DNA from: a virus | Taxonomy: Duplodnaviria > Caudoviricetes | Virus record (IMG/VR): IMGVR_UViG_3300042866_001263 | DNA length: 64,000 nucleotides | Strand: one strand, 5' to 3' | Part shown: positions 32,950-33,841 of the stretch, piece by piece | Layout of the letters: each line of letters begins with the position of its first letter | How positions within the stretch are numbered: the stretch's first letter is position 1 | Program-made: the position numbers and the translations under genes | The notes under the pieces: generated by a model | What the model was told of the DNA's origin: nothing | Databases searched by the model: none | What the model saw: only the letters and a program-made list of their open reading frames with translations

Positions 32950-33380
32950 TGAAAAACTATAAAGAAATCAAACATCTTGCTGAAGAAGCAAAGAAAAAAG
33001 AGCAAGAAGAAAAGCGTTTCTGTAAGCTCTGTCAAAAACCAGAGACCAGAAAAGAATGTTCCTATGGCGAGAAAGCATGGGATCGTTTCGCAGTTCCAGT
33101 TCAATCTATCAAAAGAGAAGAAGTAGAACTAGACGAAGCTGCTTGGACTAAAAAGGAGGGACAGAATAAGAATGGCGGTCTCAACGAAAAAGGTAGAAAG
33201 TCATACGAAAGAGCTAATCCTGGAAGCGACCTTAAGGCACCTTCAAAGAAAGTTGGAAATCCCCGCAGGGCGTCATTTTGTGCCAGAATGAAAGGACTAA
33301 AAAGTAAATTGACAAGTAAAAAAACAGCAAGGGATCCCGACAGCAGAGTAAATAAAAGCTTGAGGGCTTGGAACTGTTAG
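32949..33380 (+). CDS. Conserved phage protein, DUF6321-like (basic C-terminal domain)
   Basis: AAWTKKEGQNKNGGLNEKGRKSY...RRASFCARM...ARDPDSRVNKSLRAWNC. Confidence 0.75.
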   Translation: MKNYKEIKHLAEEAKKKEQEEKRFCKLCQKPETRKECSYGEKAWDRFAVPVQSIKREEVELDEAAWTKKEGQNKNGGLNEKGRKSYERANPGSDLKAPSKKVGNPRRASFCARMKGLKSKLTSKKTARDPDSRVNKSLRAWNC

Positions 33381-33381
33381 A

Positions 33382-33430
33382 TTTCATACCTTTTCATTCT
33401 TATAAATAGTAGTAATGAAAAGGTATGAAA
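33382..33430 (+). promoter_or_regulatory. 17-bp hairpin with late promoter TATAAATA in the loop, sequestering the endonuclease RBS and ATG
   Basis: TTTCATACCTTTTCATT (33382-33398) / AATGAAAAGGTATGAAA (33414-33430); TATAAATA at 33401-33408; ATG at 33425 lies in the right arm. Confidence 0.85.
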
Positions 33431-33841
33431 ATGTCAGAGAAAATTTGTACTAGGTGTAAGAATTCAAAACCAAGAACACCAGAATATTTCCCACTTCACA
33501 ATAAATGTAAAGATGGTTTAGATAGTTGGTGTAGAGCTTGTAGAGCGTCTTATCGTAGTGAAATAAACAGAGGAAAATTTAGAGGACAACTTACTGATGA
33601 TGAGGTAAGAAAACTGAAGCAACAAATCACATGTGATATATGTGGTAAAGAAGATACTGGTGGATCCAAGAACAATAAACATCTAGGCAAAGTAAAATCT
33701 TTGGTTATGGATCATGACCACCACACTGGAAAATTTAGAGGAATGTTATGTAACCACTGTAATAGAGGATTGGGCAACTTTTTTGATAATGTAAATACTT
33801 TGGAAAATGCCATTTTGTACCTAAAAAAGTGGAATTGCTGA
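33425..33841 (+). mobile_element. Free-standing homing endonuclease, Endonuclease VII-like HNH with N-terminal Zn finger
   Basis: CTRCK...WCRAC finger; CDICG...DHDHHTGKFRGMLCNHCNRGLGNF.DN...AILYL catalytic domain; AT-rich; dedicated regulatory hairpin. Confidence 0.85.

Follow-up and report, generated by a model that had tools for sequence, protein, structure and literature searches.

A free-standing EndoVII-motif endonuclease cassette that very likely homes into the 3' end of the DUF6321 gene of T4-like cyanophages and carries a substitute gene end

We propose that the small gene directly behind the DUF6321 gene of a marine T4-like cyanophage (Kyanoviridae) is part of a free-standing homing cassette of the EndoVII-motif (F-CphI/DHHRN) type, with the 3' end of the DUF6321 gene as its target, and comparison with related loci makes this reading very likely. 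The phage is represented by the window, that is, the whole stretch of 64,000 nucleotides that was analysed (IMG/VR record IMGVR_UViG_3300042866_001263). The mobile unit appears to span approximately 33293-33829 and to consist of three parts, namely a diverged gene end of 28 codons with its stop, a hairpin with a putative late promoter, and an endonuclease ORF that lacks a stop of its own. The DUF6321 gene is a mosaic, both junctions of the unit are visible in relatives, and the arrangement recurs in other phages, in which 27, 9, 3, 2 or 0 codons of the displaced gene end remain. The substitute end is inherited together with the endonuclease, and the catalytic residues of the enzyme are intact.

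The genes around the locus match those of Synechococcus and Prochlorococcus myoviruses. Their order is small terminase, virion structural protein (31585-32949), DUF6321 gene, endonuclease (33431-33841 with the terminal codons and stop), a small gene assigned to phrog_5190 (E 2.9e-23) and, at 35321, the large terminase. The DUF6321 product matches the Pfam family PF19846 with an E value of 1e-21 over profile positions 2-72 of 72, and the match reaches residue 141. By tblastn the gene was found in 479 phage records, with its last residue reached among the alignments listed. It is a conserved cyanophage gene that has been invaded and is still intact, composed of a native 5' part and a 3' end borne by the cassette. 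In the phages S-H9-1 and S-RSM4 and in loci L022-L026, the phrog_5190 gene follows approximately 37-55 nt after the DUF6321 stop. The coordinates of the features are collected in Table 1.

Table 1 Features of the DUF6321 locus and of the candidate cassette in the window.
Feature	Coordinates	Strand	Basis
DUF6321 gene, 143 aa	32949..33380	+	PF19846 and tblastn; alternative ATG at 32931
Invariant block of the DUF6321 gene	33207..33292	+	No mismatch to L022-L026; same pattern in L010 vs L056
Replacement last 28 codons and stop, GLKSKLTSKKTARDPDSRVNKSLRAWNC followed by stop	33293..33380	+	Identity break against the closest endonuclease-free relatives
17-bp perfect hairpin, arms 33382-33398 and 33414-33430	33382..33430	+	Folding
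TATAAATA, T4-type late promoter motif in the hairpin loop	33401..33408	+	Read from the sequence; promoter function putative
Endonuclease ORF proper, without its own stop; N-terminal Cys-rich zinc-finger-like region and C-terminal EndoVII motif (DHDH 33710-33721)	33431..33829	+	PF02945
Recipient's original last three DUF6321 codons and stop, TGG AAT TGC TGA, now the endonuclease C-terminus and stop	33830..33841	+	Collinearity with endonuclease-free relatives
Native right flank, spacer and small gene phrog_5190 (33896-34051)	33842..34051	+	Common to endonuclease-free relatives

The DUF6321 gene ends in TGG AAC TGT TAG (33369-33380) and the endonuclease in TGG AAT TGC TGA. As the first-pass annotation had pointed out, the two endings encode the same W-N-C-stop in different codons, since the Asn, Cys and stop codons all differ between the copies. 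It had also described the codons at the end of the upstream gene as unusual, and the counts agree with this. All four Ser codons among the last 28 are AGT or AGC and two of the three Arg codons are AGG, against a baseline of 28.6% AGY among Ser codons and 7.8% AGG among Arg codons in the 34 long ORFs of the window (16,962 codons). The corresponding probabilities are P ~0.007 for Ser AGY at 4/4 positions and P ~0.017 for Arg AGG at 2/3 or more. In the remainder of the gene, Ser is mostly TCN and Arg mostly CGT or AGA. AGY at codon -7 also occurs in 7 of the 68 unique endonuclease-free ends.

The annotation had set a prediction in advance, namely that endonuclease-free relatives should read TGG AAT TGC TGA directly after the DUF6321 ORF. 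A scan of IMG/VR with the DUF6321 protein returned 80 loci, and the predicted reading, ...TGG AAT TGC TGA CA(T/C/A)AAA..., is present at L022-L026, L037 and L041. The five loci L022-L026 have no endonuclease, encode DUF6321 proteins 92-97% identical to that of the window, and end the gene with ...AAA TCG CTT CGT GCG TGG AAT TGC TGA. In L025, TGG AAT TGC TGA is followed by exactly CATAAAACTGCC. Downstream of this end, L025 reads CATAAAACTGCCAAAAAATTT and both L022 and L023 read CACAAACCTGACGAAAAATTTGTTGTTATTATAATTAGTTTTGAGGTTTCCATTATGATAATGAGACTGA; in the window, this sequence stands behind the endonuclease. Starting from the TGG at 33830, the window and L025 match over 33 nt without a mismatch and remain collinear with 87% identity over approximately 400 nt. 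Judged from these alignments, the shared WNC-stop is not a chance match, because the downstream copy runs on without a break into what lies behind the DUF6321 stop in endonuclease-free relatives. The view that the downstream WNC-stop is the original gene end, now fused to the endonuclease ORF, thus found support in L022-L026, L037 and L041.

Two observations could have spoken against this view. One was that endonuclease-free relatives might end in AAC TGT TAG or share the AGY and AGG codons; the closest of them do neither, and at the marked positions they read TCN for Ser and CGN for Arg. The other was that homologous endonucleases elsewhere might also end in WNC, and their native ends are different, as S-SRM01 ends in ...ERDK, F-CphI in ...YLKRYQ, and Hpy99I has YLKKY near its end. 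For the CATAAAAC-type sequence after WNC, the counter-case would be the same sequence at endonuclease homologues beside unrelated genes.

The left side of the unit was located by the same comparison. Against L022-L026 there are no mismatches over the invariant block, and mismatches are dense from 33293 to the stop. The identity between the window and its closest endonuclease-free relatives is 60-63% over the last 87 nt and 92-93% over the preceding 183 nt. The replacement end differs from theirs at only two residues (M to L and I to V) and at approximately 35-40% of its nucleotides. The identity break on the left and the collinearity on the right indicate that approximately 33293-33829 is foreign to the genetic background of the window, that the DUF6321 gene is a mosaic, and that the last 12 nt of the endonuclease ORF belonged to the recipient. 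The left homology arm probably corresponds to the invariant block, in which the position of the left crossover is hidden. The constancy of the left boundary need not reflect a fixed cut, since it marks where sequence identity ends.

The same pattern was found in a second background. Compared with the endonuclease-free locus L056, L010 and L009 show 97% and 94% identity, respectively, ahead of codon -28, and 66% over the final 87 nt. On the right side, L010 (...GAA AGG AAT TGC TGA CACAAATATGTGT...) and L056 (...GCT TGG AAT TGC TGA CACAAATATGTGT...) are identical from GG AAT on, and the W codon reads AGG in both L009 and L010. Third, the site is occupied in L027, a locus closely related to the window, by another EndoVII gene (32% identity). 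This gene ends in TAC CTA AAA AAG TGG AAT TGC TGA (YLKKWNC-stop) and is followed by the native flank of L027. Presence or absence of the endonuclease thus varies at one site, with the junctions conserved, in no fewer than three genetic backgrounds.

The right crossover can be placed only approximately. A native endonuclease end (...[ED]R[ND]x-stop) and the end of the target gene (...[AK]W[ND]C-stop) have the same length after a shared Leu-Lys/Arg, and for this reason the Asn codon could be assigned to either parent. The last codons might stem from a short-repeat deletion in an L017-like ancestor or from a microhomology join at the Asn codon; either would give the sequence seen. The 12 nt before TGG (TAC CTA AAA AAG) are common to the window and L027 and are not found in the endonuclease-free relatives. 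This sharing is explained only loosely, by the conserved YLKK motif of the family or by a junction between two cassettes.

To follow the inheritance of the substitute end, we used a maximum-likelihood tree of the last 84 nt of the DUF6321 gene (76 unique rows, 84 columns). All six endonuclease-linked ends fall in one clade of 11 rows (support 99/94), in which a subclade (support 100/91) unites those of the window, L009 and L007. The closest endonuclease-free relatives of the window, together with the displaced ends of L018 and L019, lie among the 65 rows outside. Over these 84 nt, the window shares 83% identity with the endonuclease-carrying L009 and L010. The tree is supportive of co-inheritance rather than conclusive, because the alignment is short.

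One alternative accepts the mosaic as real and holds that the divergence of the end has nothing to do with immunity. The end would then be a hitch-hiking allele from a distant donor, or would be kept because near-identical direct repeats would delete the endonuclease. The recognition site could in this case lie elsewhere, for example across the insertion point, where the insertion itself destroys it. We regard this alternative as possible, although doubtful. It is favoured by the five endonuclease-free ends inside the endonuclease-linked clade, which make the haplotype non-exclusive and show that it exists as a natural variant, and by the mobile ORFs of fungal mitochondria, whose inserted C-terminus is read as horizontally acquired (PMC3630166). 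Moreover, the two copies in L104 and in the window differ at nearly every synonymous site, as would be expected under selection against repeat-mediated deletion. Against it, the window, L009 and L007 have ends that differ from the 68 unique endonuclease-free ends by a mean of 29 of 84 nt (29.4 for the window), beyond any endonuclease-free end (maximum single mean 26.7; mutual mean 21.2), with only two conservative residues changed. Codon -27, which is Met in all 68 endonuclease-free ends, is Leu in the window, L007, L009 and L105. An excess of divergence with so few residue changes fits selection on the DNA sequence itself, although it does not prove it.

The endonuclease-free members of the clade were also searched for traces of a lost endonuclease. 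L028 has an endonuclease-type end, then approximately 55 nt, and then a decayed second copy (AAG TTG AAT TGT CGA) that is contiguous with the native downstream sequence, which looks like the footprint of an endonuclease loss. Among the endonuclease-free loci with an endonuclease-type end, this is the only footprint; no endonuclease remnant was found in L030, L045 or L101, and L061 holds only 20 nt after the stop. The endonuclease itself is distributed sporadically, being present in one cultured phage (S-SRM01) among the 479 records and at 18 IMG/VR loci, compared with a minimum of 599 in which the DUF6321 gene occurs.

The product of the endonuclease gene, read from the ATG at 33431, has 136 aa and matches PF02945 (EndoVII) with an E value of 1.2e-15 (residues 65-135 of 138). 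By BLASTP, its catalytic half is 55% identical to that of F-CphI from phage S-PM2 over 49 aa (E 8e-16), and the N-terminal halves of the two proteins align poorly. The residues D94, H95, H97, R103 and N111 are invariant in 11 aligned sequences including F-CphI. The best solved relative is Hpy99I (PDB 3fc3; E 5e-10, residues 4-134). According to PMC6083498 (Fang et al. 2018), F-CphI (S-PM2 ORF177) is the founding member of the DHHRN homing endonuclease family, and the endonuclease clade is set apart from the resolvase clade by the position of the motif and the architecture. The enzyme of the window has a C-terminal EndoVII motif, the conserved D/H/H/R/N residues and detectable homology to F-CphI; the five residues were equated with those of the family from the name DHHRN and from PMC6083498. 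On these sequence features we assign it to the F-CphI (DHHRN) family. The similarity to F-CphI and Hpy99I and the C-terminal position of the motif place it, by the division given in that paper, in the endonuclease clade and not in the resolvase clade.

The gene could otherwise be a housekeeping Holliday-junction resolvase, equivalent to T4 gp49, and the mosaic a product of ordinary cyanophage recombination. The name of the Pfam family, 'Recombination endonuclease VII', and the like annotation of the S-SRM01 homologue would suit this, which we nevertheless consider very improbable. The gene is missing from the closest relatives of the window and from nearly all cyanophages that have the flanking genes. 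Its catalytic motif lies in the C-terminal part, following a zinc-finger-like region; F-CphI and Hpy99I are built likewise, and PMC6083498 puts this arrangement in the endonuclease clade. T4 EndoVII (1e7d) aligns over 31 residues with an E value of 0.18, and neither similarity over the full length nor an N-terminal motif was found. Finally, decayed copies exist: the start codon is lost in L010, and L007, L008 and L020 are without the right hairpin arm and the promoter and have an aberrant tail, with a degenerate hairpin in L007.

We also looked for further EndoVII genes. Searching the window by tblastn with three EndoVII proteins, we found no second EndoVII catalytic domain. A small ORF after the terminase (36922-37197) was considered as a relative and rejected; it has no significant similarity to the endonuclease of the window and matches the N-terminus of F-CphI weakly.

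Returning to the homing cassette, the displaced gene end is preserved to different lengths in different lineages. In L017-19, the endonuclease ends natively (...YLRDRNN-stop) and is followed at once by an ORF of 27 codons, ATG AAA AAG AAA CTT ACA ... TGG AAT TGT TAA. This ORF encodes MKKKLTSAKTAHDPDSRINKSLRKWNC followed by a stop, shares 74-78% protein identity with the gene end of the window, and starts at most 1-2 codons from the left breakpoint of the window. It is the displaced gene end, in which the duplicate is directly visible. Our search found no empty-site relative of L017 among cultured phages, and the matches in other phages were to the 27-codon relic only. As no such relative was found, the relic may either have come from the recipient or have travelled with the cassette. 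Nine codons remain in L104, in which the endonuclease ends in ...EYL-NKSLRKWDC-stop and the upstream gene in ...NKALRKWDC-stop. Three codons remain in the window and L027, and two (NC or DC) in L009, L010, L014, L105, L107 and L108. In S-SRM01, L011-L013, L015 and L016 none remain; these endonucleases end natively (...ERDK, ...ERNI, ...NRG) and abut the next gene.

The tail mirrors the local target. The DUF6321 lineages of L104 and L107 end in WDC, and the tails of their endonucleases are WDC and DC, respectively (L107 ...KKDC-stop). L108 is an exception, with an NC tail although its target gene appears to end in WDC. A C-terminal Cys is present in 23 of the 120 homologue clusters obtained from a search of 5.8-billion proteins. 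Homologues with 55% identity in phages of higher GC content are still found where a DUF6321 gene ends, the start overlapping the DUF6321 stop in L109 and L110. It had been claimed that the cassette carried a recoded duplicate end that keeps the host gene intact. The duplicate is seen directly in L017-19 and L104, and a diverged allele travelling with the endonuclease is a better description of the substitute end than recoded.

We give the least credence of all to a coincidence, in which an endonuclease natively ending in W-N-C-stop would sit in the intergenic space after the DUF6321 stop. In its favour, family members with a native end match this length and frequently show R-N-x, an aromatic residue comes after YLK(K/R) in Hpy99I and F-CphI, and a single A-to-T change could turn an RNC of the L009 type into WNC. 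It would leave unexplained the exact 33-nt match that begins at TGG and the collinearity beyond it, three lineages with three different downstream sequences that each resume their own native flank exactly at that codon, duplicated stretches of 9 codons in L104 and 27 in L017-19, and DC or WDC tails in the WDC lineages.

The segment between the substitute end and the endonuclease folds into a hairpin with a minimum free energy of -22 kcal/mol (z -7.1), and none of 200 shuffled sequences folds as well. Its 3' arm contains AAGG and an ATG at 33425, and the likely start codon at 33431 lies directly past the stem. The hairpin is kept in S-SRM01, L009, L011 and L013, and L012 has a single compensatory pair, A-U to G-C. 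Its support comes mainly from conservation and folding energy, with weak covariation consisting of this one pair. The motif (T/C)ATAAATA is found at the same place in S-SRM01, L009, L012, L013, L015 and L017. In phage T4, a stem-loop hides the ribosome-binding site of I-TevI, e, soc and gene 49 on read-through transcripts, and a late promoter inside the structure gives late transcripts without the 5' arm. The window may resemble these genes, in that its predicted folding puts a stem over the SD and AUG and TATAAATA within the structure. By analogy, read-through transcripts would be translationally silent and late transcripts active for the endonuclease.

We suggest the following course of events. 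During mixed infection, the enzyme would cut alleles that lack the endonuclease, at a site within the final ~85 bp of the gene. The repair that follows would copy the cassette, with the left crossover in the invariant block and the right one within or beside the short WNC-stop patch. In the recipient, codons -28 to -4 would give way to the substitute end, which would keep the target gene whole and, being without the recognition site, would resist cutting. The endonuclease ORF would read into the original last three codons and stop of the recipient. The hairpin would bury the ribosome-binding site of the endonuclease, which would then be translated from late transcripts only. A right arm of 12 nt is very short for ordinary homologous repair, and this counts against the proposal.

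The immunity of the substitute end to re-cutting is plausible, and we put it at about an even chance. A need to keep the two copies from recombining would account equally well for their divergence, which may reflect immunity, protection from repeat-mediated deletion, or plain foreign origin. Only tentatively, we suggest that both copies of the gene end are working parts and not debris, in that the substitute end keeps the host gene functional and uncuttable, and the native remnant supplies the C-terminus and stop of the enzyme as well as a portable patch of homology on the right.

If this tentative reading holds, one cassette could home into the DUF6321 gene of T4-like cyanophages, of the freshwater Serangoonvirus and of contigs with a family-A DNA polymerase, whose downstream regions are dissimilar, and it would represent a minimal, self-contained homing cassette of a kind so far undescribed in viruses. 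The little-studied EndoVII-motif (DHHRN) family would gain a second well-documented natural target, for which the data set offers filled, empty, decaying and lost sites. The allele without the endonuclease and the substitute end form a defined substrate pair for mapping the recognition site of a compact nuclease of 136 residues. The cassette would also explain a sharp patch of synonymous divergence in a conserved cyanophage gene, which matters for how recombination and diversity are read in phage metagenomes. These points should interest researchers working on mobile elements and on phage genomics.

Among known systems, F-CphI is the closest in several respects, being, according to PMC6083498, a free-standing gene of a T4-like cyanophage directly after a conserved target gene, with a C-terminal EndoVII motif and the D/H/H/R/N residues. 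The enzyme of the window differs in being tied to the 3' end of DUF6321, in bringing a substitute gene end, and in finishing in codons derived from the target. Hpy99I shares an alignment that includes the C-terminal YLKK motif, but it comes from a bacterial restriction system, in which it has a methylase as partner, and is not a mobile phage gene.

In functional type, the cassette resembles the intronless homing of free-standing phage endonucleases such as SegF, SegG and MobE. In T4, the genes for SegF, SegG and MobE and the mobA/gene 60 cassette lie beside a conserved gene, and the endonuclease cuts close by in an allele that lacks it. Sequence differences shield the resident allele, and markers on its flanks undergo co-conversion. 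Protection in T4 takes the form of scattered polymorphisms or, for gene 60, of an inserted bypass element, and not of a duplicated, substituted gene end. We know of no T4 endonuclease described as ending in the last codons of its own target.

A literature search, in which subscription journals were thinly covered, found neither a paper mentioning DUF6321 nor a phage precedent for a replacement gene end, the latter being no proof of absence. The strategy is known from fungal mitochondria. According to PMC3630166 and the work it cites, mobile endonuclease ORFs (mORFs) occur in atp6 of Allomyces macrogynus and in atp6, atp9, cox2 and nad3 of Glomus. An mORF inserts in the 3' part of a conserved gene, to which it supplies a foreign C-terminus in frame, and the native C-terminus stays behind downstream of the insertion. 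Of the two pieces, the native one is similar to close relatives, and the inserted one is divergent in DNA and nearly identical in protein (PMC3630166). The window has both components, since 33293-33380 is a foreign in-frame C-terminus that completes an intact DUF6321 domain, and a native C-terminus closer to relatives lies downstream (three codons and the stop in the window, 9 codons in L104 and 27 in L017-19). An mORF, however, encodes a LAGLIDADG or GIY-YIG enzyme in an organelle genome, whereas the enzyme here is of the EndoVII type in a phage genome. Because the enzyme family and the host genome differ, the cassette is not a member of the mORFs and works only like them. It differs further in having its own putative late promoter and hairpin, and in that the displaced end is mostly trimmed to 2-3 codons serving as the C-terminus and stop of the endonuclease. 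With these differences, the 'bring your own gene end' strategy of fungal mitochondria would also be operating in abundant marine viruses.

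At the same site as the cassette, a close relative of the window (L027) carries a different EndoVII-type gene (L027:2430-2945), which is 32% identical to the endonuclease of the window and is preceded by a hairpin of its own together with three TATAAAT motifs. The DUF6321 gene end in this relative is altered to W-A-C. The final 24 nt of its EndoVII-type gene and the first 6 nt of the flank (TACCTAAAAAAGTGGAATTGCTGACATAAA) are identical to the window from 33818, which suggests that cassettes replace one another at a single hot spot.

An apparent trace of such an element was found in an endonuclease-free locus, L028. 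At L028:2400-2560 the DUF6321 gene has an end of the endonuclease type (GTC AAT AAA AGT TTG ... AAC TGC TAG). The gene end is followed by a spacer of about 55 nt, which includes ATTTCATTCC, a sequence similar to the hairpin's left arm. Beyond the spacer the gene end occurs a second time in decayed form (AAG TTG AAT TGT CGA), and this copy is contiguous with the native downstream sequence. The arrangement resembles a footprint left behind when an endonuclease was lost.

Signs of decay were also observed in endonuclease-carrying relatives: the endonuclease start codon is ATA in L010 (685-700), and L007 (2954-3012), L008 and L020 have lost both the promoter and the hairpin's right arm, with an endonuclease tail that reads ...KMELLIQ in all three. 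A further such sign is that the long DUF6321-domain gene is broken into two frames at L017:702-2961, whereas it is whole in L018 (580 aa).

A further endonuclease-carrying locus, L105:539-1905, adjoins a gp13 homologue. Its DUF6321 end has the markers of the window (Leu at codon -27, Val at -10 and AGT at -7, counted back from the gene end), and its endonuclease terminates in ...YLKNNC*. On two higher-GC phage contigs (L109:1259-1890 and L110:1-594), endonucleases of 55% identity likewise follow a short DUF6321 gene, and the hairpin is absent from both loci. Their starts (ATG GAA ATG TTG and ATG GAA TTG CTA) overlap, in a different reading frame, the W-K/N-C-stop with which the target gene ends, and their tails are ENC and EKC.

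Two further genes in the window
Feature	Coordinates	Strand	Remarks
Staphylococcal-nuclease homologue	34341-34778	+	PF00565, E 1.9e-14
Small ORF	36922-37197	+	immediately 3' of large terminase; CxxC...CxxC present

About 500 nt separate the cassette from the staphylococcal-nuclease homologue on its 3' side, which belongs to the same cluster of small genes upstream of the terminase. The small ORF shows a weak match to the N-terminal part of F-CphI, the homing endonuclease of cyanophage S-PM2 (39% over 49 aa, E 0.021), and lacks a catalytic domain. It may be what remains of a further homing endonuclease next to the terminase.
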